DNA from: Methanoregula sp.
GTDB taxonomy: Archaea; Halobacteriota; Methanomicrobia; Methanomicrobiales; Methanospirillaceae
Assembly (NCBI GenBank): GCA_022711635.1
Contig: JAKLEQ010000003.1
Location: 1-54,502, forward strand
DNA length: 54,502 bases
Direction of reading: 5' to 3'
Shown here: positions 12,480-37,637 of the stretch, piece after piece
How the letters are laid out: every line of letters starts with the position of its first letter
Position numbering within the stretch: the stretch's first letter is position 1
Translations under genes and position numbers: made by a program
The notes under the pieces: model-generated
Seen by the model: the letters and a program-made list of their open reading frames with translations, nothing else
Databases searched by the model: none
What the model was told of the DNA's origin: nothing

Positions 12480-12704
12480 ATGTGCGTTGCTGTCCCTGCA
12501 GAAGTGCTGGAGATCAAGGAGGGAAATATCGGCGTTGTCGATTACGGTAACCTGCAGCAGGAAGTCCGTCTCGATCTTGTTGACGTGAAAGTCGGGGAAT
12601 TCGTGCTCGTCCATGTCGGTTTTGCGATCCAGCGGCTCTCCCGCGAAGATGGACTGGAGACCCGGGAGATCTTCAAGCAGGTGTATGCTGCACTGGAGGA
12701 GTGA
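12480..12704 (+). CDS. hypC: [NiFe]-hydrogenase maturation chaperone HypC
   Basis: 74 aa beginning MCVAVPAEV (essential Cys2). Typical HypC/HupF. Confidence 0.9.
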   Translation: MCVAVPAEVLEIKEGNIGVVDYGNLQQEVRLDLVDVKVGEFVLVHVGFAIQRLSREDGLETREIFKQVYAALEE

Positions 12705-13043
12705 ATGCACGAGTATGGGATCGCGTATGATCTCTATGCGACCGCCCGCCGTGCAGCGCTCGAGAATCATGCGGATCGCGTTCTCAGGGTCAACGTTGAT
12801 GTGGGAAAGCTCGCGATGGTCAATCCTGAACAGGTCGTCTTCCTCTTTGACATCATAAAAGAAGATGACCCGCTTTTTTCAAAATCGACGCTTGAATGCC
12901 GGGAAGTATTGGCGGAGACGGCCTGCACATGCGGGTACCGCGGCAACGAAGTCCATGTCTGTCCTTCCTGCGGAGCGCTCCCCGAGATCGTGAAAGGAAG
13001 GGAGATTGTGGTGACAAATGTCGAGATCGAGGTGGACGATTAG
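12705..13043 (+). CDS. hypA: hydrogenase nickel-insertion protein HypA
   Basis: Begins MHEYGIA and contains a CxxC...CPSCG zinc site. 112 aa. Confidence 0.9.
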   Translation: MHEYGIAYDLYATARRAALENHADRVLRVNVDVGKLAMVNPEQVVFLFDIIKEDDPLFSKSTLECREVLAETACTCGYRGNEVHVCPSCGALPEIVKGREIVVTNVEIEVDD

Positions 13044-23529: not shown

Positions 23530-23604
23530 GCTGCTATAGTGTAGACCGGCCAATCATGCGGGCCTTTCACGCCCGCGACTGGGGTTCAAATCCCCATAGC
23601 AGCA
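23530..23604 (+). tRNA. tRNA-Glu (anticodon UUC); its 3' end is the integration site of the element
   Basis: Acceptor stem GCTGCTA/TAGCAGC, anticodon stem-loop CGGGC-CTTTCAC-GCCCG, T-arm GGGGTTCAAATCCCC. Closely resembles canonical archaeal tRNA-Glu. Confidence 0.92.
23592..23604 (+). repeat. attL core (3' end of tRNA-Glu)
   Basis: CCCCATAGCAGCA, identical to 37625-37637. Confidence 0.8.
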
Positions 23605-23827
23605 TACGGACGATGGGTTGCGTTCTAATTCAAAAATAGAGCCTGTTTTCGATACGATTCTGAAAAATACCGCAGATTGCAATAGTGGCCTTTTTTCCCT
23701 TTCCGGCATCCGAACATACCGACCCCCTCCATAAAGTGCCACAGAATGAAGATATGAGGCGGTTTCCCGGGCGTCCTTTCTGCACCGCACCCGGGGAACG
23801 TGGAGGGTTGGAAAAGAGAGGGCAGGG

Positions 23828-24118
23828 TCAGATCAATTCTGTTTCGAGCTTCCGGATCTCATCCTTCAATTTTTCAAAATCGTTTTGCCGCCTTTGCATC
23901 CACCAGAGTCCGAACCCTGCGATCACAGCCCCTGATACAACCAGGAGAAGTGAGAAGTAGCCGAGGCATCCCCAGGTGAAGATCAATGCCCCAAGGATAA
24001 TTACGAGGGAAGGGCCGGATATACTGTTCCGCCCCCGCTCGTTCTTCTTCGTCTCGATCCTCCGATAAATGGTTGCATTGTGTCGTTCTTTGTCGGTCAG
24101 TCCTGAACCAGATTGCAT
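23828..24118 (-). CDS. small two-TM membrane protein with a C-terminal coiled coil (element cargo, function unknown)
   Basis: Two hydrophobic helices, SLVIILGALIFTWGCLGYF and SLLLVVSGAVIAGFGLWWM, are followed by NDFEKLKDEIRKLETELI. Confidence 0.5.
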   Translation of the reverse strand: MQSGSGLTDKERHNATIYRRIETKKNERGRNSISGPSLVIILGALIFTWGCLGYFSLLLVVSGAVIAGFGLWWMQRRQNDFEKLKDEIRKLETELI

Positions 24119-24321
24119 TTATAATCACTCTCGGTTATCTTCCTGAATCCACTCCGCTGTTCTCTGTAGCCTGGACGATAAGGGTCCTGACTGTTTCACA
24201 AGCCCTCGGAAATCCGTCCGACCCCATCGGGCCCGGCGGGGAACTACCCTGCAGGGACAAAATGTCACAGCAGCTAGGGATAATAAAATGAGAGGGTAGA
24301 GAGAGCTTTCACGCGCTACGC

Positions 24322-24990
24322 TCAGGATGGCTCCTGATCGAGGTCGTACTTCTTCGCGAGCCGGTCCCGGTCACGTTTCGACAGGCCGCAGCGCTCCCCC
24401 AGCATGAAGCCCTCGATGTTCGCCTCGATATTGTCCATCATGTCCTCGTCCCGGTCTTTACCGGTGATCGCATAATATTCGTCGATGAGATCCACCCAGG
24501 CCTGCGGAACCTTGATCTTCAGCACTGCCATACCATCCGGCAGGACCTCATTCTCCCGGGTCTTCCGGATCGCCGAGGCGAACCTGCCGATGACCTCCCT
24601 CTCCTTGAGGGCAGCCGCGACCGCTTCCCGGAGCTGACTGCCGCCATAGAACCCCTCACTCCAGGCCTCGACATCGCAGACCGTCACCTGCGGGAATGCT
24701 TCCTTCACGAGGTCCCGGATCTTTCCCCGGAGATCGTAATACGCATCCATATCGGCGTCAGCCAGGTGCTCGCCGTTCTCGAAGATGATCCTGATCTGCC
24801 CGTTCCACGGCGGGGTCCCGGGTTCCCCCTTATGCCGGGGTTCGTTGTCGATCGAGCCCCCGCTCACTTCGGGGAACCCGCAGATCAGTTTCAGGATCTT
24901 CTCCTGCACCTTATCGTACTTCTCGGGGTGGGCCGCTTTAATCTCTGCCCCGCCCTCGATAATGACATTCACGTCCATGTGTTCAATCAC
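24322..24990 (-). CDS. hypothetical acidic protein (element cargo)
   Basis: A 222-aa ORF with coding-like composition. No recognisable motif. Confidence 0.55.
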   Translation of the reverse strand: MIEHMDVNVIIEGGAEIKAAHPEKYDKVQEKILKLICGFPEVSGGSIDNEPRHKGEPGTPPWNGQIRIIFENGEHLADADMDAYYDLRGKIRDLVKEAFPQVTVCDVEAWSEGFYGGSQLREAVAAALKEREVIGRFASAIRKTRENEVLPDGMAVLKIKVPQAWVDLIDEYYAITGKDRDEDMMDNIEANIEGFMLGERCGLSKRDRDRLAKKYDLDQEPS

Positions 24991-25021
24991 TCCTATCGCG
25001 TCTTCAAGCTCCCCGGGCTAT

Positions 25022-25405
25022 CTACTGCCGGATCATCGCCCTGGTTGCCTCGCGCCGCACGACTTGGAGGAACGCGGACCAGTATACAAGGAGGTCCCCG
25101 CCGCTATCGGTCGTCTGGATCTTCAGGAACCGCCCGGAGATCGACCGGGTTGCATGGCCGACCTTCTGCCGGACCATCGGGCCGCCCGGCTCCTCGTGCC
25201 TGCGGTAGACCGGTACCGGCAGGGTCCACCGGTCCTTTGCGATACAAAGCAGCCCGCCGGCGTCGATGTAGGCCGCGTGATCCTCCCCGAAGGAATGATA
25301 GGAAATCTTCAGGGCGTCGCCATCCATGGTGATGCTTTCGGCCTTCCGGGTTACCGTGCAAGGGATCGCGGTCGATTGCTGCGGGTGGTGGGTTGTTTCG
25401 GTCAT
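25022..25405 (-). CDS. hypothetical protein (element cargo)
   Basis: The ORF lies upstream of and on the same strand as 24322-24990. The start is ATG 25405 or 25426. No recognisable motif. Confidence 0.5.
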   Translation of the reverse strand: MTETTHHPQQSTAIPCTVTRKAESITMDGDALKISYHSFGEDHAAYIDAGGLLCIAKDRWTLPVPVYRRHEEPGGPMVRQKVGHATRSISGRFLKIQTTDSGGDLLVYWSAFLQVVRREATRAMIRQ

Positions 25406-25426
25406 CAATTGTAATCCTGTCGCCAT

Positions 25427-25488
25427 TTGTTGCTACAAATAGCAATAAGCCCCAACGTATATATATTTTGTTGCTACATGTTGTTACA
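25427..25488. promoter_or_regulatory. divergent promoter with direct repeats flanking a TATA-like box
   Basis: TTGTTGCTACA occurs at 25427-25437 and 25468-25478, with a degenerate third copy TGTTGTTACA at 25479-25488. GTATATATATTTT lies between them. Confidence 0.45.
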
Positions 25489-25674
25489 ATGAGCGACACT
25501 TATACGGTCCGTATCGAGAGGAAAGGATTTGAGCAGGGGATAAAGGCCTATGATATGGTTGAAAAGACCGTCTCGAATGGTGGGAATAGTGCCCGCGTGT
25601 TTGTGCCGAAGACGTGGGCGGGAAAAACTGTGAAGGTCCTACTACTTGAACCGCTGGATGAGGAAGAAAGGTAG
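25489..25674 (+). CDS. DUF2080-like small AbrB/SpoVT-fold DNA-binding protein
   Basis: VEKTVSNGGNSARVFVPKTWAGKTVKVLLLEP matches the GNS..V.VPK.W.GK.V.V pattern of the archaeal DUF2080 'transposon-encoded' family. 61 aa. Confidence 0.65.
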   Translation: MSDTYTVRIERKGFEQGIKAYDMVEKTVSNGGNSARVFVPKTWAGKTVKVLLLEPLDEEER

Positions 25675-25675
25675 C

Positions 25676-26092
25676 ATGGCAGACCGGGATAAACTCGATC
25701 GGAATGTGCGGGAGCTGGTATATTTCCTGAATCTACTTCCGGGGATTCGGACGTATGCCTCGTGTGGCGGGCATGGAAAATTAAATGATCGAGTGAATCC
25801 CGTGCCTAAGGGGGAGTTCTACGTCAGCCTTATAGTCCCTGTCGAAGATCCTGATGGCTCTATTGAAAAGAGTCTTTCTGTAATCAGAGATGCCGCGAAG
25901 GTTTTTGAGGGTAAAATCACTTTCGAGAGAGATGCGGAAGAAGAGGGGTTCCCGGTGAAAGATGGTCACTGTTCATGGACGATAAATGGTAAGGGAATCA
26001 GGCCGCTTGATTTTGCCATAGTGCTTTTAAGTGAAGAGGGAGGCCGGCTCGAAAAAGAAGTCGACGCCCTCATTGAGAGGCGGGGCTGGTAG
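25676..26092 (+). CDS. hypothetical protein coupled to the DUF2080-like gene
   Basis: The ATG lies 1 nt after the upstream stop. 138 aa, with a TYASCGGHG motif. No family recognised by eye. Confidence 0.55.
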   Translation: MADRDKLDRNVRELVYFLNLLPGIRTYASCGGHGKLNDRVNPVPKGEFYVSLIVPVEDPDGSIEKSLSVIRDAAKVFEGKITFERDAEEEGFPVKDGHCSWTINGKGIRPLDFAIVLLSEEGGRLEKEVDALIERRGW

Positions 26093-26131
26093 TCCCGATC
26101 TCCCCGGTCCACAGTGCCCCATTTATATCCC

Positions 26132-27859
26132 TTATCCCAACGGGCGTATGAGGTGGTCGGTACGTATTCCTTTCAGTACGAGATCGCTGTCGGTCATCTT
26201 GTCCCGTTGGAGCTCTTTAATATCTCGCATTATCTCGTCGATCCGGTAGTCTTTTGATGCGTTCACGGTGATATGGTATGTATTCGTCTCGGTGACCTGC
26301 GGGGGGGCAGCCGTTGCTTGCGAGAGGAACGGCCTCGGCAGCTCTCCAACAGATGGGGCCGGCATCCCAAAATCCGATCTTACCGTCAGGCCGTAAGGAT
26401 CCTTAATCCCCTGGACTGCTGCAGCGGGAGTCGCTGCGGGGCTACTCAGCTCCTGTAAGGCAACGACAGTGGCGCCAAGGGTGGATGCCTCGATCTCTTC
26501 GGCAGAGATGTCCTGTGCATTCTCCCGCATTGCTCTCCGATAATTCTTAAGGACCGACCGGAACTGGTCGCCACCGAGCCCGACGGCGTCCTGCAGGTCT
26601 TCGATAGCGTCAGTGGTCAGATCGTTCTCATCCTGTTTGAGATCGTTAATGCGCTGGAGAGAGTCTGCGTGTGCATCGGTTGCACGGGTGAGCTCTTTCT
26701 GCAGGTCGACCGCTGTTTCCAGGGGATCGACAATACCGAGCGCGACCTTTTCCGAAGCATCATCCGTGCTATCCACCCACTTCTGCATCTCCGTATCCCA
26801 GATCGCGCCCTCGAAATATCCGGCGGCACGGAGGGCGTCCTGCGTCTGTTCTGACTGGAGCCACGAGACAAGATCCTTTCCGGTCTTCATCGCGCCAGCG
26901 GCATCGCCTGTGATGAATTGAAAGGCAGCCCTCGCTTCCTGTCCGGTGATATGGAACCCCCGGGCGGCTGCCGTCAGGAACCCGTCGAGGTTCTTGAAGA
27001 AAGTATCGATCGGCCCCCCGGTCTGGAGCGCCCCGCTGTTCAGGAGATCATTCCACTCGGCGAACGATCCGGAGAGGTCGGTGCCGACAGTATAATTCAG
27101 GTGCTGGAATGTGCCATCGAGGTCCTTGACGCTCTTCTCGTAATCGCGGAGCTTCTCCTCCTGTTCTGCCGTGAGCGTGTTGGCGGTGTTGTAATAGTTC
27201 TCAATGCCCTCCTTTCCGAGAGCGATGTATCCCGCGACGTTCTGGTATGATCTGCCGATAAGGGCATTGGAGGCTGTCACCCGGTCCCCGGATGAGGAGA
27301 GATTCCTTAGTCCCTGGATCACTTCCGGAAAGACTTCGTTCATCGACCGCATGGTGCCGTCGGAGTTCTTGTAGGAGACGCTCATCTGGTCGAGGATGGC
27401 CCGGGCCTGGTCGCCTGCCTCGCCCTGGTCGTTGAGATTGAGCTGGAGCCGGTTGATCATCGAGGCGAGGTCGCCGATGTTGCTATCGGCGTACCGGGCG
27501 ACGTTGCCCCACCGCTGGAGCTCCTCATTGCTCAGGCCAGTTGTGGTGCCGAGCCGGTCCATGGTGCTGACATACTCGGCGGCCTGGTCCGCGAGTTCCT
27601 TGAACTCTTGAACAGTCGCAGCTGCTGCAAGGCCGACAGCAGCGATAGGGGCAACTGTCGCACCGATCGCGGTACCCCATTTTGCCATCTCGAGAGTGTT
27701 TGCATTCGTTGCATCCCGCCAGTCGGTCAGGTCCCCTATCATCTTTGATGTGGCGTTCCGGGTGCTGCTCTCGATCTTTGAGAGGGCGGTGTCTACTTGC
27801 CCGCTCGCCTCGTCTTTAAGGCTCAGCACTACTGCAAGAGTGCCGATGATATCCGTCAT
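26132..27859 (-). CDS. tail tape measure protein (TP901-type core)
   Basis: 575 aa and helix-rich. A hydrophobic segment GTAIGATVAPIAAVGLAAAATV is followed by TTGLSNEELQRWGNVARYADSNIGDLASMINRL and ILDQMSVSYKNSDGTMRSMNEVFPEVIQGLRNL...ASNALIGRSYQ. This follows the conserved tape-measure core pattern. Confidence 0.65.
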   Translation of the reverse strand: MTDIIGTLAVVLSLKDEASGQVDTALSKIESSTRNATSKMIGDLTDWRDATNANTLEMAKWGTAIGATVAPIAAVGLAAAATVQEFKELADQAAEYVSTMDRLGTTTGLSNEELQRWGNVARYADSNIGDLASMINRLQLNLNDQGEAGDQARAILDQMSVSYKNSDGTMRSMNEVFPEVIQGLRNLSSSGDRVTASNALIGRSYQNVAGYIALGKEGIENYYNTANTLTAEQEEKLRDYEKSVKDLDGTFQHLNYTVGTDLSGSFAEWNDLLNSGALQTGGPIDTFFKNLDGFLTAAARGFHITGQEARAAFQFITGDAAGAMKTGKDLVSWLQSEQTQDALRAAGYFEGAIWDTEMQKWVDSTDDASEKVALGIVDPLETAVDLQKELTRATDAHADSLQRINDLKQDENDLTTDAIEDLQDAVGLGGDQFRSVLKNYRRAMRENAQDISAEEIEASTLGATVVALQELSSPAATPAAAVQGIKDPYGLTVRSDFGMPAPSVGELPRPFLSQATAAPPQVTETNTYHITVNASKDYRIDEIMRDIKELQRDKMTDSDLVLKGIRTDHLIRPLG

Positions 27860-27861
27860 CG

Positions 27862-28248
27862 TTATCCACCTCTCTTTTCCTTCTTCTCTCGTTCAAACCT
27901 CAGTATGACATCAGTCGCGACCGGGTGATCCTGGGTAAATTTCTGCCAGGTATCGTCAAGCTCCTGGCATACCTTGGTTTGTTCATCGACATCCAGCTGC
28001 AGTTTTTCGACGAAAGCTTCGCGGTCTACGATTTTTTGGGGGACTACCGGGGCCGGGGCCTTTTTCCCCCAATCCAGCAGGAATTTCCGGTTTGTGAGGA
28101 TCCCGGAATGCAGTGCCTGCCGTTCCCGGATGATCGATCCTTCGTAGAGTTCCATCCTGGAAAGGATATTCTGCTCCCGGGCTTCGAGCTCAGCCAGCCG
28201 CTTCTTCATCTCGGCAAGCTCGGTCTCTTCGATCTGTACAAGTGCCAT
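27862..28248 (-). CDS. coiled-coil protein immediately upstream of the tape measure gene (possible tail assembly chaperone or scaffold)
   Basis: Begins MALVQIEETELAEMKKRLAELEAREQNIL. It ends 2 nt before the tape measure ATG. A GAAGGTGA RBS-like motif precedes ATG 28248. Confidence 0.5.
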   Translation of the reverse strand: MALVQIEETELAEMKKRLAELEAREQNILSRMELYEGSIIRERQALHSGILTNRKFLLDWGKKAPAPVVPQKIVDREAFVEKLQLDVDEQTKVCQELDDTWQKFTQDHPVATDVILRFEREKKEKRGG

Positions 28249-28261
28249 AAGTGTCACCTTC

Positions 28262-28756
28262 TCAATGCGGGAGATCCTTCGCTGCAACAACGATATGGCC
28301 TGCCTTCAGTTTCCGCACGAGCTCGGCCGCCCCTTCGCGAGTGACCCGGCCCTGAAGATGAAGGGCGCCATACACCGAGGGCCACCGGTCCTGAGGGCAA
28401 TCCGGCCAATGATCCTGCATAAAATTGTACTGGTCGTTTGCGTTCCGGAGGTTGTACTCCTTCCCACCGCTCCGAATGTAAGCAGGACCGTACGTCCTTT
28501 CCTGGTCTCCAAAGTCTTCGATCACCTGGCCGTTCATTACGATCTTCGTAGCCGTGATGGTGTCCGGGTCGGCGATGCGGGCCGGGGGTGCCGGCTTGGC
28601 GCTGTGGATCCGGAACATCTTTTCATCGGTAGTCTCTGCTGCTGCAGCAGGGGATTTTACCCACTTGAGGTTTCGTACATCTTCGCGGACCTTGCGCCCG
28701 AACTGGCGCATCTCTGCAGCCAGGCGATTCATTCTTTCGTCAAGAGTTTCTGTCAT
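28262..28756 (-). CDS. hypothetical protein between terL and the tape-measure module
   Basis: A 164-aa ORF in the same operon orientation. No recognisable motif. Confidence 0.5.
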   Translation of the reverse strand: MTETLDERMNRLAAEMRQFGRKVREDVRNLKWVKSPAAAAETTDEKMFRIHSAKPAPPARIADPDTITATKIVMNGQVIEDFGDQERTYGPAYIRSGGKEYNLRNANDQYNFMQDHWPDCPQDRWPSVYGALHLQGRVTREGAAELVRKLKAGHIVVAAKDLPH

Positions 28757-28863
28757 GGTTTCAATCCTTTACTTTAAGTTAGTGTGAAAAATTTTGAGAG
28801 GAGTCTGAAGGTTCCTGAACAGGGCTCGCCGGTCCTCATCATGCCGGGTCATTGCCCATATGT

Positions 28864-30348
28864 TCACCATAGCGGATCCACCTCGAAGGACCGGGATCGC
28901 TTCCCTGGCTGCTGACCCCAGCCGCCCGGGCCGAACCCGGCAGCGTGCTCAAGGGTAAGATCTGACCCCCCGAATCCATCCCGGCTGCAGCCGAAGACGA
29001 GCATCAGGGCGTCGGCCCGGTCAGGACTTGCCATTCCCCGGCGTTTCATGTCGTCTTTGCTCTCGATCTGGATCTGCCCGCGGGAGTTGACCTTGTACCG
29101 GATGGCGGAGAGCTGGGAGACGAGGGTCTCATCGTCCGGGATGTCGATCTCCCCTTCCTCGAACCGGGTGCGGAGTTCCCCCCACCACTCGGCCCGGGCG
29201 TTGGCGAAGCGTTCCTTGTCCTTCGCTGCCATCCCGCTCTGCATCTCCTGGACCGGGATCCCCTGCTCGTTCAGCCGGTCGAAGACCCCCGCACCGATGC
29301 CGATGCTGTCGATCTTCGCGAGCGTGGCGCCGGTTTCCCTGATGGCCTGGATGACGGCCCCCGCTGTCTCCATGGTGTCGGACATCGGGAGGACCTTGTG
29401 GATCCGGGCGTGGTTGCCGTACCGGCAGAAGATGACCGTCTCGTCGCTCCCAAACCGTGCCACGTCCACCCCCAGCTCGACAGGCGGTCCTGGTTCGATG
29501 GTGCGCTCGATCGCGGCCTCGATATGGTGTAGCGGGATGAGGGTGTCGGCCCCGGAGAGCGGGAACTGCGCGAGGACCTTGCTCTTGTAGAGCGGGCTCT
29601 CGGGTCCCCAGCGTTTCACCCGGTCGGCTACCCATCCAGGAGTGACGAGATACGGGGCGGGCAGGGGGCCGGTCACCTTCTCCTTCCAGGTCCCGTCCAG
29701 GATGTCCTGCTCGGCGAGGCCGTACCGGGTGAAGTTCGGCGTGTCGAAGGCACTGATCGAGATCTTCGAGGCGCCCATCCCTCCCGCGAACTCCTTGAAG
29801 AACCGGCCCGCCGGGTTTGTCGGGTTCCCGATCATGAGGAGCCGTGACTCATCAGAGGTGAGCACGCCATCGATCGCGTCGAAGATGTCCTCCGAGATGC
29901 CGCTCGCTTCATCAGCGATCACGAGGATGTAAACGGCATGGAATCCCTGGAACTTGTCGGCGGAATATTCCGGCGCCGTGAATCCAACTGCCCACCAGTC
30001 GTTTTCGAGCTTCAGCTCCTGGTTGAGGCAATTGCCCTGAAGCGGGACCTTCGCCCGCTGGTGACTCGTCCGGATCTCCTTCCAGAGGATCCCGGTCACC
30101 TGCCGGTCGGTCGGGGCAGTCGTAATCACGAGGCTGCGGGGGTGAGTGTAGAGGAACCAGAGGGCCGCGCAGGCTGCCACGTGACTCTTCCCCGCAGCAT
30201 GGCAGCTCTTGACGGCTGTCACCTTGTTATCCCGCACGCTTTCCAGGATCTCGACTTGCTTCTGCCAGGGCTCGTGCCCGAGGACCTCCCGAACCCAGAG
30301 GGCAGGGTCGAAGAAGTGGCGGAGGGCGGAAGTAGTCATCTGATCCAT
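28864..30348 (-). CDS. terL: terminase large subunit
   Basis: Walker A VKSCHAAGKSHV and Walker B ILVIADEASGI. The nuclease domain has GVDVARFGSDETVI, KIDSIGIGAGV and SPDRADALMLVF acidic motifs. 494 aa with no disruptions. Confidence 0.85.
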   Translation of the reverse strand: MDQMTTSALRHFFDPALWVREVLGHEPWQKQVEILESVRDNKVTAVKSCHAAGKSHVAACAALWFLYTHPRSLVITTAPTDRQVTGILWKEIRTSHQRAKVPLQGNCLNQELKLENDWWAVGFTAPEYSADKFQGFHAVYILVIADEASGISEDIFDAIDGVLTSDESRLLMIGNPTNPAGRFFKEFAGGMGASKISISAFDTPNFTRYGLAEQDILDGTWKEKVTGPLPAPYLVTPGWVADRVKRWGPESPLYKSKVLAQFPLSGADTLIPLHHIEAAIERTIEPGPPVELGVDVARFGSDETVIFCRYGNHARIHKVLPMSDTMETAGAVIQAIRETGATLAKIDSIGIGAGVFDRLNEQGIPVQEMQSGMAAKDKERFANARAEWWGELRTRFEEGEIDIPDDETLVSQLSAIRYKVNSRGQIQIESKDDMKRRGMASPDRADALMLVFGCSRDGFGGSDLTLEHAAGFGPGGWGQQPGKRSRSFEVDPLW

Positions 30349-30731
30349 TCCTCCGTTGTCAGCAAGGGGTCGGGATGCACCCGGGGCCTTGATGGGTTTC
30401 CTCTATCGCTCCCGAAGCAGGACGGCCCGACATGACCCTGCCGGACGGTCCCGGCTTGCCTGCAGTGTGCGAGGGCCTCTGCAGCGCAATGAAAGGACCC
30501 GGCGCGACCGGTGAGGCTCCGGCAGGGACCGGAGGCACCACCCAGGGCAACTGCCTCGGCGTACGTGATCTCGCGGTCGATATCCTTTATGTGCTCCTCC
30601 AGGGCTGCCCGCTGCTCTTTCAGACATCGGAGGACCTGGCGGGGGGCCGTCGGGGACGTAACATAACCGGGGAGGCGGGAGTGAAGACGTGGCAGGACCG
30701 CGAGCGGGCCGGTGATGAATGAGCAGGTCAT
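30336..30731 (-). CDS. hypothetical protein overlapping the terL start
   Basis: A 131-aa ORF that overlaps the terL ATG by 13 nt. The sequence is somewhat low-complexity, so coding status is uncertain. Confidence 0.35.
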   Translation of the reverse strand: MTCSFITGPLAVLPRLHSRLPGYVTSPTAPRQVLRCLKEQRAALEEHIKDIDREITYAEAVALGGASGPCRSLTGRAGSFHCAAEALAHCRQAGTVRQGHVGPSCFGSDRGNPSRPRVHPDPLLTTEEWIR

Positions 30732-30954
30732 GATCGGGCGGCCTCCGTCGGAGTGCTGTTTTGTCCCAATGGCAGCGTAACCTTTAAAAGAACACTTTCG
30801 ATTAATCCTACACGAGAAATATAATAAAGGATTATCTCAATGAATTGAGCCGCGTTTATTTTCTGCCGTCGTGCACTTTTTATACTTGATGTAGAATTAT
30901 TGCGGAGAATCGCCGTTATGCGAACTCTGTTCTGCCCGGCCCGGTCAGACCATT

Positions 30955-31473
30955 TCATAACCCGGCCTCCTGGAGCGCTTCGTCGAGCTCCTGCCGGATC
31001 TCGGGATGTCTTTGGAGGACCTGGAGGATAATGAGGTAATCGGGGGACTTTTGGTAAGAGATCGCCACAGGGTTGTTGATCTGTATGGCGGTAGATGGCC
31101 CCAACAGGCGCATGAGCCGGGCCTGGAGGTCGAGGAGCTCGCGGGCTTCCTTCATGGTCGCGATCTCATGTTTCCGGTCCCGATCCTGCTGGCACTCATC
31201 CAGGAGGCGCTTTGCCCGGAGGCCGAGGCCCTTTACCTGCCCGAGCACGTCATCGTCCCCAGTCGCGGTTGCCGCGATCTCTTCCATCTTCAGGCGCTGG
31301 ACCGCTTTCTGCTGCTGCTCCGTGACCTGCATGTGCTGACGGTGGCGGGATAAAGCCGCCTTCGAAACGTTCCACTGTCTCTCGATTTTCCTGTAACTTG
31401 TTCCGATAAGCAACTCCGCGTTGATTTTTTCGAGGTCCGGGTGATTACAGATACCACATCTACATCCAGTCAT
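30955..31473 (-). CDS. HTH DNA-binding protein, small-terminase-like
   Basis: MTGCRCGICNHPDLEKINAELLIGTSYRKIERQWNVSKAALSRHRQH is a CxxC + HTH N-terminus seen in phage small terminases and regulators. A coiled-coil oligomerisation-like region follows. It is located upstream of terL. Confidence 0.45.
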   Translation of the reverse strand: MTGCRCGICNHPDLEKINAELLIGTSYRKIERQWNVSKAALSRHRQHMQVTEQQQKAVQRLKMEEIAATATGDDDVLGQVKGLGLRAKRLLDECQQDRDRKHEIATMKEARELLDLQARLMRLLGPSTAIQINNPVAISYQKSPDYLIILQVLQRHPEIRQELDEALQEAGL

Positions 31474-33223
31474 TTCGAGCGACCTCCCGGGCGGCATCCG
31501 AGCCCCCGCCGGCAGCCTTCCATGCCGCTTGGAATTGTTCGTAATGCGGAGGGCGGCCGGGCAGATAGGACATAAGAATTTCTGAGAGTTCTTTCAGGGA
31601 TTTACCAGCCCATGAAATTTCAACGTCGCTACCCGACGTTACATGTGCAGGATGTGCAGGTTCTGACGCACTTACTTTTTCTATACGTAAAATACCGGAC
31701 TCCTCCTTTTCTTTTACGCGTAATAAGTTGGAACTTTCCTGCACATCCTGCACCGAAGCCATTTTCTCCGACGTGTTTTCGGGGTGATTGTGCAGGATGT
31801 TCAGGATATCGCCATCTTTCAGTGTCGTGTCCGGGAAGATTGCGAGACTGTCTTTGATCTTAAATCCCTGGAAACAATGCTCCCTCCGGGACCTGATGGA
31901 CGGGTATGTATCGATCGCCCCTGCCTGTTTCATCAGCTCGAACAGGGCCCTCTGGCTCTCGACTTCGAACTCGGCATCGTTGCAGTATTCGACGTACATT
32001 GCATACACGTCCCGCTTGACCAGGATCGCCCCCCGGCACCGTTCCAGTCTGTCCCGGATGAAAGCGTAACCCGAGGATGCATCAGACAGCCAATCCCGCT
32101 CGACATTATCGGTGGTTTCGAGCCTTTTTGCCTGGATAATGGCGGTCATACGCTCGATGACCAGGAGGAGGAGGCCCGACACGAACTCGTCCGTGAAGTG
32201 CGTTTTCTCGAACTCCGGATCCTTCGGAAACGATCCGTTGAAGTTGATGGCGATCCAGCGGTCCCACCATGCGGCATCAGCGCCTTTGATTTTCGGGTAC
32301 CGGTTGGCAGAGAAGAGGAACACCGCCTTGTTGACCGTGGCGTATGGATCCCGGTGCTTCCGTTCGACCGTGATGGCATCCCCGCCCGTCAGTGCTTTGA
32401 AGAGGCCAAGGTTGGAGATCCTGGAGTCCGCGAGGTCCGCGTAAGCGTTCAGGATCTTCCCGTCGAGGTCGGCGAGCCGGAACCGGTCGAAGAGAAGGTC
32501 GTGGATGCTGATGCTGGAGCAGATTGCAGGTCCGAAGAGATGATGGGTGATCAACCTGGTGAAGGTCGACTTCCCGCTGTCCCTGTCGCCGCGGAGGAAG
32601 TACGCCCGCTTGTAAACCCGGCCAAGCATCGAGAGGATTGCATGCGCCGGGATCTGCAGGAGGAGGTCCCGCTCGACCCCGAGGGAATCGAGATATTTTA
32701 AGACCGCTGCTGTGCCGGCATCCGGGATGTATTTTGCCTTGAGCTTGTAGTTGAACCGGAACTCCGGGGAATGCGGCTGCAGGGAGACGGCGCCGGTATT
32801 GAAATCCAGCACCAGGACCCCGTTCTCGAGCGGGATTGCGTTGGGAGACTGGTTGAACGGGTACTCCCTGCAGGGAGAGTCGAAGCGGATATAGTGCAAA
32901 ACCTGCGCGGTTGCGGTTGTTACCTTTTCCTTTGCACCGATCCCGCGGTACTGCAGGATAACCTGGATCTGGCTCTCCAGCTCCCCCTTATCCTCCGTGA
33001 AGATACCGTCCCTGTACCGGTACACAATATTGTTGAAAGAGACGAGATCCCCCGTCCGGAGGAGTTCCTGCGCGATCGCGTAATAATCGACGCCGGTGTT
33101 TTTCTCATCGGCAGCCCGTTCCAGGGCGATCCGTTCCACCTCTTTCTTTCGTGCGCCCTCAGTGAGGGCATCGACGCGGGCCTGCTCTTCAGGAGTCAGG
33201 ACGATATCCTGCGGGGGCGTCAT
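31460..33223 (-). CDS. D5/P4-family SF3 helicase (primase-helicase C-terminal type replication protein)
   Basis: D5_N-like region YPFNQSPNAIPLENGVLVL, Walker A GDRDSGKSTFTRLI and Walker B-like KILNAYADLAD. ATG 33223 forms an ATGA overlap with the upstream ORF. Confidence 0.8.
   Translation of the reverse strand: MTPPQDIVLTPEEQARVDALTEGARKKEVERIALERAADEKNTGVDYYAIAQELLRTGDLVSFNNIVYRYRDGIFTEDKGELESQIQVILQYRGIGAKEKVTTATAQVLHYIRFDSPCREYPFNQSPNAIPLENGVLVLDFNTGAVSLQPHSPEFRFNYKLKAKYIPDAGTAAVLKYLDSLGVERDLLLQIPAHAILSMLGRVYKRAYFLRGDRDSGKSTFTRLITHHLFGPAICSSISIHDLLFDRFRLADLDGKILNAYADLADSRISNLGLFKALTGGDAITVERKHRDPYATVNKAVFLFSANRYPKIKGADAAWWDRWIAINFNGSFPKDPEFEKTHFTDEFVSGLLLLVIERMTAIIQAKRLETTDNVERDWLSDASSGYAFIRDRLERCRGAILVKRDVYAMYVEYCNDAEFEVESQRALFELMKQAGAIDTYPSIRSRREHCFQGFKIKDSLAIFPDTTLKDGDILNILHNHPENTSEKMASVQDVQESSNLLRVKEKEESGILRIEKVSASEPAHPAHVTSGSDVEISWAGKSLKELSEILMSYLPGRPPHYEQFQAAWKAAGGGSDAAREVARNDWM
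31645..31805. repeat. iteron-like repeats flanking an AT-rich core (candidate replication origin) inside the 3' part of the helicase gene
   Basis: GTGCAGGATGTGCAGG lies at 31645-31660. Its exact inverted copy CCTGCACATCCTGCAC lies at 31738-31753. A third direct copy GTGCAGGATGTTCAGG lies at 31790-31805. The 77-bp spacer between the first two is AT-rich. Confidence 0.5.
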
Positions 33224-33594
33224 GGCAGGTACCCTCGGCTCTCCATGAAGTCCGTGCATCGATCGATAATGTCCTTCTCGGCGCAGAGATCGTAACCGAA
33301 GATCTTGAACCCGTGGCGATACTCCAGGGCGACCATCAACTCCCATCCGGAGCGGCATCCGAGCGGGAGGAATGCCTCGCGGCCCGGTGGTACATATGCC
33401 TCCGGCACGTGCACGCTGCTCCCATGGCGCGGCTCCCGCTCACTGAAGGGCGAGGTCCGGGGGATTTCGCCGTCCATCTGCCGCCGCCTGAACAGGGTCT
33501 TTTTCCAGTACGCTGCCTTCTGCTCGTCGGTATATCCCGGCGGCCAAAAGTCCGGCGACATCGCGGGGACCGGCCCGGTGGCATCAGAGGTCAT
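33220..33594 (-). CDS. hypothetical protein (early operon)
   Basis: A 124-aa ORF with ATGA overlaps at both ends. Confidence 0.5.
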   Translation of the reverse strand: MTSDATGPVPAMSPDFWPPGYTDEQKAAYWKKTLFRRRQMDGEIPRTSPFSEREPRHGSSVHVPEAYVPPGREAFLPLGCRSGWELMVALEYRHGFKIFGYDLCAEKDIIDRCTDFMESRGYLP

Positions 33595-33809
33595 GGGGTC
33601 CGCCCCCGCCCCATTTCGTCCGATACGAGAAGTAAGGCACCGATCAATTCCTCGTACGTCAGCAGCACCTCGCCATTCGAGAGGGCAACCGCATCGGTGA
33701 CTACGTGCGTACTGTCATCGAACAGCTGATCGAGACAGAAGAGAACAGCTTCCCGGGTCGACAGATCCGGCCTCCCGCCGTTCAGATCCTCGCGTGAAAA
33801 GCCTTTCAT
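33591..33809 (-). CDS. hypothetical protein (early operon)
   Basis: A 72-aa acidic ORF with ATGA overlaps at both ends. Confidence 0.45.
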   Translation of the reverse strand: MKGFSREDLNGGRPDLSTREAVLFCLDQLFDDSTHVVTDAVALSNGEVLLTYEELIGALLLVSDEMGRGRTP

Positions 33810-34000
33810 GTACGGGCACCCCGTTTCGTGAGCTCTTCGAGCAGGTGGTCGCGGACCTGGATGGCGACATCGACACGACGGATGCTCTCGTTATAATCCG
33901 CCGAGTCGAAGCTGACGGAAAGAACTCCGGATTTTCCGGGTGTGCCGATGGTCAGCCGATCCTGGAACCGGCTCTGGTTGATAACCGGGGCGTCGGTCAC
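33806..34000 (-). CDS. hypothetical protein (early operon)
   Basis: The GTG at 34000 forms a GTGA overlap with the upstream stop. 64 aa. Confidence 0.4.
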   Translation of the reverse strand: MTDAPVINQSRFQDRLTIGTPGKSGVLSVSFDSADYNESIRRVDVAIQVRDHLLEELTKRGART

Positions 34001-34344
34001 GTCTCCACTCCCCCAAGAAGCGAAAGGAAGTCCGACCACCTGAGTATTACCCGCGGCTCGGTCCGGTTGCGCCGGAAGACCAGGAGCGGGTGGAGGCCCT
34101 CCTTCGCGGCGTTGGCCTCACACTGCTCGATCGATTTCCAGACATCAAGGCGCTCGACATTTTTGCACTCGACGCCGTATGGGAAGACGTCCCGGGCTGC
34201 TTTGGACAAGTAGATATCGCACCCGGCCTGCCCCATTGCGGTGCTCTGGATATCGACCTCCTGGATCCCGATCCGGGTGATGAGGTCCTGCCGGATCTCC
34301 AGCTGGAAATGCCTGCCCTTCGCTTTGCAGCTCCGGGGCATCAT
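33997..34344 (-). CDS. PD-(D/E)XK nuclease, Holliday-junction-resolvase-like
   Basis: MMPRSCKAKGRHFQLEIRQDL...GCDIYL...PYGVECKNVERLDVWKSIEQ follows the K-G-x-x-F-E / D / E-x-K pattern of phage/archaeal resolvases. Confidence 0.6.
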   Translation of the reverse strand: MMPRSCKAKGRHFQLEIRQDLITRIGIQEVDIQSTAMGQAGCDIYLSKAARDVFPYGVECKNVERLDVWKSIEQCEANAAKEGLHPLLVFRRNRTEPRVILRWSDFLSLLGGVET

Positions 34345-34598
34345 GACCGACACCTCATGCAGCCGCGGACCGGTCTTGGAGGTCGTGCAGGTGGAAGCAT
34401 AACCCGGATCCTCTGGATGCCGTCAGGTCCGATCACTGGCTCCAATTGCTCGAGAACCCACTCTCGCAGCACTATCGGGAGCGGGGAGAGCGTATCGATC
34501 CAAGATGCATATTCCCCGATCGTAAAGCCTCGCCCTTCGTGGAATCGATCCACGAGCCTGCGGGCGACAAGATCCGGGCGTCCATTCCAGCGCGTCAA
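34341..34598 (-). CDS. hypothetical protein (early operon)
   Basis: An 85-aa ORF with ATGA overlaps. Confidence 0.45.
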   Translation of the reverse strand: MTRWNGRPDLVARRLVDRFHEGRGFTIGEYASWIDTLSPLPIVLREWVLEQLEPVIGPDGIQRIRVMLPPARPPRPVRGCMRCRS

Positions 34599-34783
34599 TG
34601 GATCACCCCGGCCTTTACGAGATCCTCGACCGTGCGGTCATCATTATGCAGCCGGTAGAGGCGGGCGATCTGCTCCTGTTGCCCCCGGGTCAGGCGCTCG
34701 ATATCGTCATCGACGCTGCGCAGGAGGGAGAGCGCATCCGCCCGTGTCGATGGGGTCCATTTAGGCGAGAATTGTCTCGACAT
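34595..34783 (-). CDS. hypothetical protein (early operon)
   Basis: A 62-aa ORF, first of the overlapping chain. Confidence 0.4.
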   Translation of the reverse strand: MSRQFSPKWTPSTRADALSLLRSVDDDIERLTRGQQEQIARLYRLHNDDRTVEDLVKAGVIH

Positions 34784-34843
34784 GGTCCCTCTCTGTTCCC
34801 GGGGCGGTTCCCCCGATCTGGTCGTTGGTGGTGATAATTCCCG

Positions 34844-34999
34844 TCAAATCAACCGCCACCGACCATCTGCGATTGCGATCTCGGCTGCGGCCCGGTGGAG
34901 GTCCGGCAGGTGTGAAAGAGTCTCCCGGTCAATGGTGAATCCGGGAATCGGTCGGGCTTTTGGCAAAGGTTTTGTCGTTTGAGAGGCAGACGGTGTCAT
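34844..34999 (-). CDS. hypothetical small protein
   Basis: ATG 34999 forms an ATGA overlap with the RHH gene stop. 51 aa. Confidence 0.35.
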   Translation of the reverse strand: MTPSASQTTKPLPKARPIPGFTIDRETLSHLPDLHRAAAEIAIADGRWRLI

Positions 35000-35211
35000 G
35001 TCCTTTGCCTCCGGGCAATGGGCGGTGCGGTGGAGGGCTGACCGGCTGGCACTGGCGTCCCCCCATCGCATCTCCTCAATCGTTCCTCAAGCGTTTCTCG
35101 GACAAGGCCGGAGATGTTGATCTTCAGTGACCGTGCCTGGGCGTGAAGATCTTCCGGGATCATGATGCTCGTTTGGGTGTAGACAATCCCACCCCGTCGA
35201 ACGGACGACAT
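34996..35211 (-). CDS. ribbon-helix-helix (CopG/CcdA-like) DNA-binding protein, probable element regulator
   Basis: TSIMIPEDLHAQARSLKINISGLVRETLEERL is a beta-strand plus two-helix RHH pattern. It is the first gene of the leftward operon, next to a divergent TATA-containing promoter. Confidence 0.6.
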   Translation of the reverse strand: MSSVRRGGIVYTQTSIMIPEDLHAQARSLKINISGLVRETLEERLRRCDGGTPVPAGQPSTAPPIARRQRT

Positions 35212-35281
35212 TATGTATAGTAGAATAGCGCATAGCATTATATAGGAAATCGCGCAATATCTAACGAATTAATTTGGAACG

Positions 35282-36256
35282 ATGAGATTATTTTGGATTG
35301 ATTGCAGGGATACCGCCAAAATTCGGCCTGAAACACTTTTCCGATTACAGGATCTCACCCATCAAATGAAAAACCATCGAGGGGGGGATCTTCAGAATTT
35401 ATACCATCCCGATGTAACTGGCTGGTCCTATGCAATTGCCATAGCGTTGATAAAAACAACGTCGGCAAAAACTTATTGGAAACAGCCTCTCAAGATGGCA
35501 TTTTACGTACCGGTAAAGAAGTTCAAAAAGAACAGGGGTCCCGGGGAATGTGAGCGATACGACGGGGTTAAAAGTAACCTCTACATGGGATCGCTTCAAT
35601 CAACTCCTGGAGGGTTTGTTCCGCGCGATACGGTTTTCCGTCGCCATGATCCCCCCGTAAATATAAGAACAACAATATTATGCGCTGGCTGGGTGGGAAA
35701 AGAAGACGATCTATTTTTGTCCCGGGATCCCAAACGGCCCTGGGAGATCTCGATAAGTATGTCGCGTACCGGGAATCGTCGCCTTATCTTCCTTGCAGTC
35801 CTAAATTGCGAATGGGGGACAATCCGCCCGAAATGGTGGCCCCAGGAGTGGCGTGATGATCCTCGCCGATCCTCTGGTGAAAATGTCATTAAGAGATTAC
35901 TTCGCGGCATAACCTGGGTGTATAATCCGTTCAACATTGACAAGGCCCGCCCCCGGGAGTATATTAAAAAAGTGATTAAAGAGGAGAAGAAACGGGTTTG
36001 TAAACGGGACCCCGACCGCCCGTTCGAGGGATTGACTGTTTACCCCCCGCCGAAGACAAAAACCGATTTCGATAAGCTTCATGAGCACGATCGCCGGGAT
36101 TTCGCGAGGTTTATGGAAATGGAAAATATGAAATGGTGCGAGTGGTGCGGGAGGCGTTTTATCGCGATGCGGAGCGATGCCCGAGCCTGCCCGCGGTCGG
36201 CTTGTAAGAAGGCACTCTCTCGAAAGTCACCGGTAAGAAAATATCGAAAAACCTGA
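35282..36256 (+). CDS. orphan protein with a C-terminal zinc-ribbon (element cargo, opposite strand, lower GC)
   Basis: 324 aa and basic. C-terminal CEWCGRRF...ACPRSAC. TTATATAG lies about 35 nt upstream of the ATG. The region is visibly more AT-rich than its surroundings. Confidence 0.6.
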   Translation: MRLFWIDCRDTAKIRPETLFRLQDLTHQMKNHRGGDLQNLYHPDVTGWSYAIAIALIKTTSAKTYWKQPLKMAFYVPVKKFKKNRGPGECERYDGVKSNLYMGSLQSTPGGFVPRDTVFRRHDPPVNIRTTILCAGWVGKEDDLFLSRDPKRPWEISISMSRTGNRRLIFLAVLNCEWGTIRPKWWPQEWRDDPRRSSGENVIKRLLRGITWVYNPFNIDKARPREYIKKVIKEEKKRVCKRDPDRPFEGLTVYPPPKTKTDFDKLHEHDRRDFARFMEMENMKWCEWCGRRFIAMRSDARACPRSACKKALSRKSPVRKYRKT

Positions 36257-36281
36257 AAATTGAACGCCGATGAGAGGGGAT

Positions 36282-37559
36282 TTATACTATCCCTCTCTTG
36301 ACGGCAATCAGTTGATCCTGCAAATCTTTCACCTGCTGTTGGAGATGCTTGAACTCCGGTAAAAGTTCGGCCTGTTCCATGACGGTCTTCACCCTCTCCC
36401 GGTCCTCTTCGGTGAGCGCCGTCTCGCACTTCACGCACCATCTCCGGGTCGGTCCGTTGATCTCCCCGCAGTGAGGGCATTGCCGGGGCTCAAGGATCTT
36501 TGACTTGGTCCTCTCTCCCATCTCCACCCCTGCTACCCGGGCCATCTCGTTCACGACATCAGCCCCCCCGACATGGTTATAACACTTGTCAAACATCGTC
36601 GTTGCCGGGTCCCCCCATCCAAGGAGTTTAATCATGCTCTCCTGGGTGCCGTCCTGCACGAGGTGGGTTATCCGTGAATGCCGGAAGATGTGCGGGGTAA
36701 CGTGTTTCTGGATACCGGCACGCCCGGCGATTTTCCGGATCTGCTTCGCGATGCCGGCATACTGCAGCTGGTTACGACCCGAGCGTTTCCCGCCGCCATT
36801 CGCGGTGAGGAAAACGAACCGGTCCCCGGCAGGCTCCCCGGGGTAATCATTCTTCCATGCCGAGAGGTATTCCCGGGCCATGAACAATGGAATAATCCGG
36901 GTCTTCTCCGTTTTGAACCGGACCTTCAGGGTTGCATTGACATTGGTAAACGTGACCTGATTCCACCGCAGCGTACCAAGTTCGCCGATGCGGAGGGCGC
37001 CTTCATACAGGACAGACACGATCGCCCGGTCCCGGGAGTTCTGGCAGGCTCGCAGCATCGCGTGAACCTCTTCCCTTGAAAAAATCGAGTCCTCGGTCTT
37101 GACATCGTACCGGTATGCCGGCGGGGAAATTTCCTTCAGTTTCTTATAGGGGATAGTGGACCTTTCATTGTCCACAAGCCAGAGGAAAAACCGCTTCATG
37201 AACCGGACGAAATCGGCCTGGGTATTCTGTTTATACCGGGTGCTCCCGTCCGGCTTCTGTGTGGTCTCGATCGCCTCCCTCGCGGCATACACATCCTTGA
37301 TGCCACATTCGGGGAATGGCCTCGGCAGGAACTCACGCACTCCGATGAGCGTCACCGTGATTTTAAAGACCCGGGCTGTCGTGATCTTCCGGCTCCTCGC
37401 ACGAAGCTCCTGGGTAAATTCAAGGATGAGGTCCGCGTCTGCCTGGGAGATCCTCCCCTCCGTCACCGCCCTTGACAGGGCGCTCGTCGAATACCTCCGA
37501 TATGTCTCATCAGAAGTATGAAAATGGCTAATGCTCTCTTGACCGGCTGGCGTGGTCAT
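36282..37559 (-). CDS. int: tyrosine recombinase / integrase with a C-terminal zinc-ribbon and coiled-coil extension
   Basis: Catalytic-domain motifs LYEGALRIGEL (Arg), HIFRHSRITHL (H-x-x-R) and KCYNHV (Tyr). The tail contains CPHCGEINGPTRRWCVKCE. It is adjacent to attR. Confidence 0.85.
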   Translation of the reverse strand: MTTPAGQESISHFHTSDETYRRYSTSALSRAVTEGRISQADADLILEFTQELRARSRKITTARVFKITVTLIGVREFLPRPFPECGIKDVYAAREAIETTQKPDGSTRYKQNTQADFVRFMKRFFLWLVDNERSTIPYKKLKEISPPAYRYDVKTEDSIFSREEVHAMLRACQNSRDRAIVSVLYEGALRIGELGTLRWNQVTFTNVNATLKVRFKTEKTRIIPLFMAREYLSAWKNDYPGEPAGDRFVFLTANGGGKRSGRNQLQYAGIAKQIRKIAGRAGIQKHVTPHIFRHSRITHLVQDGTQESMIKLLGWGDPATTMFDKCYNHVGGADVVNEMARVAGVEMGERTKSKILEPRQCPHCGEINGPTRRWCVKCETALTEEDRERVKTVMEQAELLPEFKHLQQQVKDLQDQLIAVKRGIV

Positions 37560-37624
37560 GGATTAAAGTTGGGCTAACTTCTATATAATAGTTTCCCAAC
37601 AGAACATAACCCAAGGTCTATATG

Positions 37625-37637
37625 CCCCATAGCAGCA
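37625..37637 (+). repeat. attR core
   Basis: CCCCATAGCAGCA, identical to the tRNA-Glu 3' end at 23592-23604. It lies 66 nt beyond the integrase start. Confidence 0.8.

Follow-up and report, generated by a model that had tools for sequence, protein, structure and literature searches.

Satellites that exploit tailed viruses are well studied in bacteria, and the literature searched contains no description of any that exploit tailed viruses of archaea; the archaeal satellites accepted so far depend on spindle-shaped viruses, and a 2026 preprint puts forward a circle of 3.8 kb as satellite of an Asgard siphovirus (10.64898/2026.08.12.739948). The terminase complex, with its small (TerS) and large (TerL) proteins, has so far been taken as strictly diagnostic of viruses. 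A cryptic integrated element, NitKor-E1, has been reported from Ca. Nitrosopumilus koreensis AR1 (Thaumarchaeota), where it was read as enigmatic and likely a relic (Krupovic et al. 2019, PMC6563490). Here, a stretch of 54,502 bp from Methanoregula sp. (GenBank assembly GCA_022711635.1, contig JAKLEQ010000003.1, positions 1 to 54,502; hereafter the window) was analyzed, in which an element of 14,033 bp is inserted into a tRNA-Glu gene. Comparative sequence analysis places this element in a conserved clade of terminase-carrying, portal-less islands of Methanomicrobiales. We regard it as moderately probable that the members of this family are satellites with a terminase of their own, dependent on head-tailed viruses of Methanomicrobiales as helpers.

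In NitKor-E1, as in the Methanoregula element, TerS and TerL are the sole Caudovirales-type packaging or head genes and are accompanied by a tyrosine integrase and a PD-(D/E)XK nuclease; the window element and one close relative (L191) add a homologue of a tape-measure protein (TMP). Compared by gene content, NitKor-E1 is a single element, whereas the present case comprises a multi-member clade with a replication module, iterons, purifying selection on TerL and demonstrated presence/absence polymorphism.

Among bacterial satellites, phage-inducible chromosomal islands, or PICIs, are defined in SatelliteFinder by int, a regulator, pri-rep, capsid-morphogenesis genes and terS, with terL only in the capsid-forming type (cf-PICI), where it occurs with capsid genes; their median size is 9.5 kb (PMC10085698). 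The Methanoregula element resembles PICIs, including the Staphylococcus aureus pathogenicity islands (SaPIs), in its size, in an integrase at one end beside the attachment (att) site, in a divergent regulatory pair and in a primase-replicase followed by iterons and then a small terminase; structural and lysis genes are likewise absent, and some relatives carry defense cargo. By contrast, PICIs reside in bacteria and use the TerL of the helper, whereas here the host is archaeal and the TerL is the island's own; no capsid-remodeling gene was recognized in the element, and homology to PICI proteins was shown only at the level of generic families. Set against the PICI definition, order and size (about 10–15 kb) fit, the regulator and terS are assigned by nothing more than position and domain type, and TerL and the TMP homologue are additional phage-type genes from a structural class usually missing in PICIs. 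By analogy, the family may work like PICIs while falling outside them in host domain, in TerL and in its unproven dependence on a helper. The cf-PICIs also encode TerL with TerS, but they carry their own capsid, portal, protease and head-tail adaptors, none of which was detected here, and steal only tails. Satellite P4 shares an integrative habit, a size of ∼11–14 kb, a tRNA-type site and a D5/alpha-type primase-helicase, with dependence (on the part of P4) on a tailed helper, but it has no terminase genes and uses the cos system of its helper; homologues of Sid, Psu and Delta were not found in Pfam and PHROG scans of the element. The family is neither cf-PICI nor P4 nor a complete provirus.

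The archaeal satellites considered were pSSVx/pSSVi, the haloarchaeal SRCE (10.1101/2025.02.15.638363) and the putative 3.8-kb Asgard circle NMV2S (10.64898/2026.08.12.739948). All are archaeal, are proposed or shown to ride in helper particles and, like the present element, pair replication genes of plasmid type with a morphogenetic module that is incomplete. However, pSSVx/pSSVi and SRCE parasitize spindle-shaped viruses and carry an AAA+ ATPase or a major capsid protein (MCP), and none of these satellites, as described in these papers, has a terminase, is integrated in a tRNA gene or comes from a methanogen.

The tRNA-Glu(UUC) gene occupies 23530–23604 on the + strand (ARAGORN, anticodon ttc), and the element spans 23605–37637, its 14,033 bp counting one copy of the repeated core and equaling the repeat-to-repeat spacing. 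The 13-mer CCCCATAGCAGCA has exactly two matches in the window (Table 1), and the count is the same when one mismatch is allowed; the chance expectation is 0.07, and two or more matches were obtained in none of 100 shuffles. Given that the neighboring bases differ at the two copies, the direct repeat is exactly 13 bp. The tRNA-Glu is complete after insertion, with the core duplicated at both ends. To the left lie genes for Ni-sirohydrochlorin a,c-diamide synthase and a class IV aminotransferase (IlvE), and to the right a gene for an adenosine-specific kinase family protein (Adenosine_kin PF04008, 1.6e-74).

Empty and occupied loci were gathered by looking up contigs that encode an IlvE identical in amino-acid sequence. 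In four metagenome assemblies (L005, L009, L011 and L014) the site was empty, and IlvE and an identical tRNA-Glu were followed directly by the adenosine-kinase gene; the sequence there (...ggttcaaatCCCCATAGCAGCActcttattttcaccgg...) runs from tRNA-Glu through one core copy into the right-hand flank of the window. Because the flanks of these loci are 99.3–99.6% identical to those of the window across 10–11 kb per side, they represent other strains of the same species. A 90%-identity cluster member of CfbB names the host as a Methanoregulaceae archaeon. Six loci were occupied (L006, L007, L008, L010, L012 and L013), occupied samples including JGI 3300010429 and 3300009776 and ENA ERZ27257456 and ERZ27257455, and element copies in six assemblies were 99.86–100% identical to the window element. 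Thus, 14,033 bp have been inserted site-specifically into the 3′ end of tRNA-Glu, a result obtained at base-pair resolution. In addition, the 13-bp core forms bases 1–13 of one contig (L004; DAOTDX010000001.1 of GCA_035453865.1), which starts precisely with the core. Assemblers break contigs in this way where reads diverge, and the break suggests a branch of the assembly graph, with filled and empty versions of the site, or more than one element, present together in that sample. The preliminary description of this DNA had proposed such a recombinase-mediated insertion into tRNA-Glu, bounded by a 13-bp repeat and flanked by core genome, and had suggested that relatives be searched for tRNA-Glu joined straight to the right-flank gene. 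Its coordinates are all correct, and the proposal is borne out by the two-site repeat, the exact conspecific empty sites, the L004 break and the identity of the flanking genes.

The integrase gene is a single intact ORF (open reading frame) of 425 aa whose start lies 65 nt from the attR core. Since this gene is unsplit, the integration is of the pNOB8 kind and not of the SSV kind; the latter, in which attP lies inside int and partitions it, was ruled out. As with pNOB8-type integrases, int remains intact after integration and the att core outside it corresponds to the tRNA 3′ end, a likeness seen in layout, whereas the integrase found here carries an unusual C-terminal zinc ribbon. The catalytic R, HxxR, W and Y motifs were found in the translation as ALRIGEL, HIFRHSR, LLGW and CYNH. 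With these motifs intact, copies in six assemblies nearly identical and presence/absence precise, the element is plausibly still mobile.

Gene content was established by Pfam and PHROG scans of all candidate ORFs, with PADLOC for defense systems. These scans detected no portal, capsid protein, protease, tail tube, baseplate or lysis gene, and no hidden Markov model (HMM) of either collection matched an HK97-fold MCP with protease or scaffold. When the element was compared with a complete Caudoviricetes provirus, TerL was present and portal, MCP, tail tube, Dit/Tal and lysis genes were missing, and judged on these genes the element is not a complete provirus. The preliminary description had called the interior virus/plasmid-like or orphan, which is correct yet understated, given a terminase-type packaging module, a TMP homologue and membership in a conserved island family.

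The TerL matched large-terminase nuclease domains in the PDB at 2e-5, was 39–45% identical to annotated phage terminases and had more than 6,000 homologues. Residues of Walker A (K54, S55), Walker B (D146, E147) and the nuclease (D295, D347, D443, D446) were invariant across 28 relatives. The dN/dS ratio was 0.089 between the window and L111 (dS 0.36), 0.12 between L018 and L020, and 0.16 between L112 and L114, values that point to purifying selection on TerL within the portal-less clade (0.09–0.16). Database matches, invariant catalytic residues and low dN/dS together indicate that this TerL is genuine and probably functional. Its homologues also occur in true viruses: a normal TerS-TerL-portal-head-tail module surrounds the TerL of a Methanoregula metagenome-assembled genome (MAG; L015/L016, 68% by BLASTP), of a Methanomicrobiales MAG (L193, 73%) and of a bacterium (L017, 59%), and TerLs of true Methanoregula/Methanomicrobiales viruses are 65–71% identical to that of the window. 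An iterated portal HMM search located a portal within 4 kb downstream of 101 of 171 related TerL genes in the fetched loci and none in the window element. Those portal-less TerLs with enough surrounding sequence to judge were, bar a few distant exceptions, those of the islands described below, and they formed one clade in a neighbor-joining tree (bootstrap 199 of 200), nested among viral TerLs and comprising the window, L111, L191, L018, L020, L112, L113, L114, L192 and L071. Across domains, the TerLs of viruses and islands of methanogenic archaea were 55–63% identical to those of prophages in bacterial MAGs (P0070, P0088 and P0115; loci L017 and L021), namely Latescibacteria and MAGs labeled “bacterium,” which is unusually high conservation for a terminase.

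The closest TerLs (71–79% identical in a trimmed alignment) were all located in small islands of 9–13 kb with the same plan. Their shared order is the integrase, a reverse-strand gene, small ORFs, a replication gene, iterons, the TerS-like gene, a small ORF, TerL and then a few small variable ORFs; the replication gene encodes either a D5 primase-helicase or a PrimPol with an MTBMA_p00010-like protein, and the genes after TerL are not conserved across the family. One island (L018/L019) measures 9,599 bp between 63-nt direct repeats that correspond to the 3′ part of tRNA-Leu(gag). A second (L192) of ∼9.4 kb (4051–13514) sits at the hypC/hypA junction of a related Methanoregulaceae genome and is bounded by a 19-nt imperfect direct repeat that overlaps the hypA start codon at the 5′ end of that gene. 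The gene order of this genome matches the left flank of the window, where the hypC/hypA junction lies near ∼12.7 kb; because L192 occupies this junction of the same neighborhood, the family uses two different att sites within ∼10 kb. A third island (L020, ∼8.8 kb) adjoins leuA, and no flanking repeat was found for it. The 12.8-kb contig L191 is syntenic with the window element, including the 164-aa protein and the TMP homologue, with proteins 27–78% identical and no nucleotide similarity; it showed no terminal overlap and hence no sign of being a circular contig. The partial island L113 has an integrase 63% identical to that of the window. In a subgroup represented by L112 (4194–5465), L114 (8725–16742) and L197 (8458–15090), the TerS-like and TerL genes are followed by swappable defense-type cargo, one set being Dcm (C5-methylase)-AIPR-Z1 and the other consisting of RNase III-like, Schlafen-type helicase, HIT, HNH and NERD-UvrD genes; no integrase was visible on the sequenced side of these loci. 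Such cargo beside TerS-TerL recalls bacterial satellites, which often carry defense-type genes. At the tRNA-Leu locus of L018, a restriction-modification gene of the MmeI type and a ParE toxin pair (762–4553) lie just outside the 63-nt repeat and a third, partial tRNA-Leu copy of 46 nt (14355–14400) lies beyond the tRNA, an arrangement suggestive of integrations in tandem or in succession at a single tRNA.

The TerS-like protein (family F2) was detected in six of eight islands compared by blastp, to which alignment added the L192 copy, and homologues stand directly upstream of TerL in the true viruses L036 and L047. Members match helix-turn-helix (HTH) families of Pfam, one of them Phage_Mu_Gp27 at 0.002. 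An AlphaFold2 model (predicted local distance difference test score, pLDDT, 66) comprises a three-helix HTH and long helices, and the best match in the profile and fold searches, not a significant one, is an uncharacterized Caudovirales protein (E = 0.0095).

Residues 84–365 of the TMP homologue are 58% identical to a 681-aa protein of a 38-kb siphovirus (L194/L195) that stands where a TMP is expected, in the order tail tube, chaperones, TMP, Dit, Tal. The 38-kb contigs of this siphovirus (L194, L195 and L196) encode a T4-type TerL (Terminase_6N/6C) with no detectable similarity to the island TerL. Because the siphovirus that shares the TMP has this dissimilar TerL, the TerL and TMP of the island derive from different virus lineages and the island is a mosaic; for the same lack of similarity this siphovirus was dropped as a candidate source or helper. 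Among the islands the TMP homologue is confined to the subgroup of the window element and L191, and it would best be described as an extra tail-related gene taken from another siphovirus lineage. In one occupied locus (L007, 13687–15413; also L001; the copy in JGI 3300010429, otherwise 99.99% identical), a 1-nt indel splits the TMP gene into ORFs of 132 and 413 aa, which reflects either a sequencing error or a dispensable gene. The overlapping ORFs of 164 and 142 aa had been considered as a G/GT chaperone frameshift pair; this was abandoned on finding the 142-aa homologue after TMP in L191.

All three exact window copies of GTGCAGGAT fall within the 165-bp iteron cluster (Table 1), which has the helicase domain on one side and the TerS-like gene on the other. 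A neighbor with one mismatch accompanies each copy, the three doublets being direct, inverted and direct in turn. The other family members all have short doublets of their own at this position, between the replication gene and TerS: GTAACCATGA in L191, CTTGAACCTTCC and AAAAGGTTC in L020, GGGTTGGTC in L018, GGATAATG in L113 and CCATGAACC in L192. The cluster is a candidate replication origin next to its initiator, and could alternatively be a candidate pac site. Staphylococcal islands have the same layout, with the origin adjoining the initiator.

In tailed viruses (Duplodnaviria), the TerL motor requires a portal-bearing procapsid. Given this requirement, the lack of room for a portal in the 9-kb sister islands and the conservation of TerS and TerL under selection, a satellite lifestyle is the reading that we favor. 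The integrase has recombined the attP of the element, a 13-bp core lying upstream of int, with the matching 3′ end of tRNA-Glu. In the proposed cycle, the integrated island would remain inactive until replication of a head-tailed virus in the same host, whereupon it would excise and replicate from its own origin by means of the D5 primase-helicase, after which its own TerS/TerL complex would recognize and cut island DNA and pump it into procapsids of the helper, which would also supply the tails; the 14-kb genome might enter the capsids as multimers, or the capsids might be smaller. The divergent pair of zinc-finger and ribbon-helix-helix (RHH) proteins may form a lysogeny-type switch, and the variable N terminus of the zinc-finger protein may sense the helper, for which Stl of the SaPIs is the analogy. 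Within this scheme, integration was observed at the empty and occupied sites, and packaging by a helper is what we infer from analogous systems.

Several points weigh against a satellite. No helper virus was identified for this host, and we know of no characterized TerL-carrying satellite without capsid genes, so that the packaging step is proposed by analogy. The assembled contigs contained neither an excised circle nor an attP junction, and no encapsidated copy came to light. The TerS-like protein had no significant match in a PDB profile search or in Foldseek searches of PDB and BFVD, and its assignment as TerS-like rests on position, HTH and coiled coil. The 1-nt indel in one copy suggests that the TMP gene may be dispensable or decaying. 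The orphans of 222, 164, 148, 142, 134, 131 and 324 aa have no fold assignment, models of two proteins by AlphaFold2 both being poor, and the TerL phylogeny was built by neighbor joining only.

Another explanation, which we consider unlikely, is that the element is a decaying remnant of a temperate siphovirus in tRNA-Glu that has lost portal, capsid and most tail genes, retains TerS, TerL and TMP as relics and is still moved by its integrase. The order TerS-TerL...TMP...DUF2080 is collinear with a siphovirus map with two internal deletions, true viruses of the same TerL group (L067 and L134) carry similar D5 primase and PD-(D/E)XK genes, the TMP gene is frameshifted in one copy, and NitKor-E1 provides a published precedent for reading such an element as a relic (PMC6563490). 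However, the same portal-less layout recurs with intact ORFs in at least six independently integrated and deeply diverged islands whose TerLs form the single clade described above and evolve under purifying selection, and the origin of TerL and TMP in different virus lineages is at odds with a simple deletion derivative.

It is likewise improbable that the element is a plasmid-like or cryptic integrative element that spreads by other means and uses TerS and TerL for interference with invading tailed viruses or for processing its own concatemers. The proximity of TerS-TerL to defense-type genes in L112, L114 and L197 and a plasmid-like replication module (D5 primase-helicase, or PrimPol with the MTBMA_p00010-like protein) are in keeping with this possibility, as is the lack of a known helper. 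By contrast, the Pfam and PHROG scans gave no genes for conjugation or any other mode of transfer, and TerL retains its ATPase and nuclease motifs and the identity to TerLs of working viruses given above, which fits docking to a portal; moreover, helper interference is itself part of satellite biology, so that this explanation overlaps with a satellite lifestyle. An autonomous minimal virus that makes its own particles from an unrecognized capsid protein and portal among the orphans is very improbable: about 10 ORFs lack an assigned fold, TerS, TerL and a TMP homologue are present, and the 164-aa protein and its neighbors are lineage-specific, but no unassigned ORF exceeds 324 aa and the one of that length is the zinc-finger protein beside int on the opposite strand, L192 and L020 (each 9 kb in total) have only two to five ORFs of 49–196 aa after TerL, too little to accommodate portal, capsid and tail genes, the genes beyond TerL are not kept across the family, and TerL-driven packaging needs a portal.

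We put at roughly even the chance that this is the first satellite family of head-tailed viruses in archaea, its islands encoding both TerS and TerL, lacking genes for capsid and portal and loading their DNA into helper procapsids, some members also carrying a tape-measure gene or anti-virus defense cargo. If so, the enigmatic NitKor-E1 would gain a function, and helper hijacking would extend to the combination of an own motor with a stolen shell, a strategy not described for bacterial satellites. The calling of proviruses by TerL would over-count viruses in archaeal genomes, and methanogens of anaerobic digesters would possess a route of gene transfer and virus interference. Given that the presence/absence polymorphism occurs in public digester metagenomes, the satellite idea is directly testable.

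Table 1. Features of the tRNA-Glu element and the evidence for their assignment (window coordinates)
Feature	Coordinates	Strand	Evidence or remark
attL core CCCCATAGCAGCA	23592..23604	+	last 13 nt of tRNA-Glu
96-aa orphan, one hydrophobic segment	23828..24118	-	no significant Pfam or PHROG match
222-aa orphan	24322..24990	-	homologue in L191 (50% over 64 aa); no Pfam, PHROG or PADLOC match
134-aa orphan	25022..25426	-	shared with L191 (30%)
DUF2080 small protein	25393..25674	+	Pfam PF09853, 7e-6
148-aa orphan	25646..26092	+	weak PHROG match, function unknown
TMP homologue, 575 aa	26132..27859	-	PHROG TMP families, 1e-9 to 1e-12; Pfam PhageMin_Tail, 1e-3
142-aa protein	27862..28290	-	shared with L191 (27%)
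164-aa lineage-specific protein directly after TerL	28262..28756	-	counterpart in L191, 59% identical
TerL, 494 aa	28864..30348	-	phrog_2, 6.5e-36; intact Walker A/B and acidic residues of the nuclease
131-aa member of family F5, just upstream of TerL	30336..30731	-	kept in L191, L192 and L020
76-aa orphan	30728..30958	-	no Pfam or PHROG assignment
Small-terminase-like protein, family F2, 172-180 aa, with CxxC, HTH and coiled coil	30955..31497	-	position and architecture
Iteron cluster	31645..31807	.	three doublets of GTGCAGGAT
D5-type primase-helicase (DUF5906/D5_N)	31460..33358	-	Pfam, 1.2e-17 and 5e-5; phrog_864 DNA primase, 4e-59
Three small ORFs, 124, 72 and 77 aa	33220..34039	-	77-aa ORF is family F6
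PD-(D/E)XK nuclease, Holliday-junction-resolvase-like	33997..34353	-	Pfam PDDEXK_15, 5.7e-8; phrog_244, 1e-20
Small early ORFs, 85, 62 and 75 aa	34341..35071	-	homologues in L018, L020 and L113
RHH (CcdA-like) protein, first gene of leftward operon	34996..35238	-	Pfam CcdA, 3e-6; homologue in L113
324-aa protein divergent from operon, family F4	35282..36256	+	conserved C-terminal CxxC...C...C zinc finger, variable N terminus
Tyrosine integrase, 425 aa	36282..37559	-	Pfam PF00589, 3e-23 (residues 162-329), and DZR; phrog_1, 9e-31
attR core, second 13-mer copy	37625..37637	+	L004 contig begins exactly here

Nearly all genes of the element lie on the minus strand in one long operon that runs leftward from ∼35238 (Table 1). 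The RHH protein at its head is, by position, a candidate Cro/Str-like regulator. The divergent 324-aa protein, the largest unassigned ORF, had no match in Pfam, PHROG, PADLOC or PDB; family F4, to which it belongs, occupies the same position in L191, L020 and L113 by blastp, with weaker positional counterparts in L192 and L018 seen in alignment only, and it may be the master repressor. The region of this gene (window 35001–36000) has the lowest G+C content of the element, 0.49 as compared with 0.55–0.64 elsewhere, which fits a separately acquired or fast-evolving regulatory gene.

The primase-helicase probably starts at 33223 (587 aa), and family F6 is kept upstream of the replication gene in L018, L020, L113 and L191. 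The PD-(D/E)XK nuclease is 57% identical to its homologue in the tailed virus L067, and the DUF2080 protein has a 42% identical homologue downstream of the tail genes in siphovirus L194. For the 164-aa protein, only three homologue clusters were found among 1.84 billion representatives, and its AlphaFold2 model was too poor to interpret. PADLOC found no defense system in the window element, and IMG/VR contained no close relative of the element, no TerL more than 70% identical and no homologue of the 164-aa protein. A scan of genome contigs with the TerL protein gave distant bacterial matches only.

The double zinc ribbon of the integrase (residues ∼355–383) follows the catalytic domain and is an unusual appendage for a tyrosine recombinase; the L192 integrase (4130–5329) has the same appendage, and a zinc-ribbon protein is also encoded in L071 (3370–4041). 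Further to the left of the element, the window carries coenzyme F430 genes at ∼18.2–22.3 kb (CbiX/CfbA-like, CfbE, CfbD-like and CfbB; the cfb genes correspond to L005 5817–9893) and hypC, hypA and hypE at ∼12.5–14.0 kb, with tRNA-Ser(tga) at 12267–12351 just upstream of hypC. With its cfb and hyp genes, this left flank is ordinary methanogen core genome.

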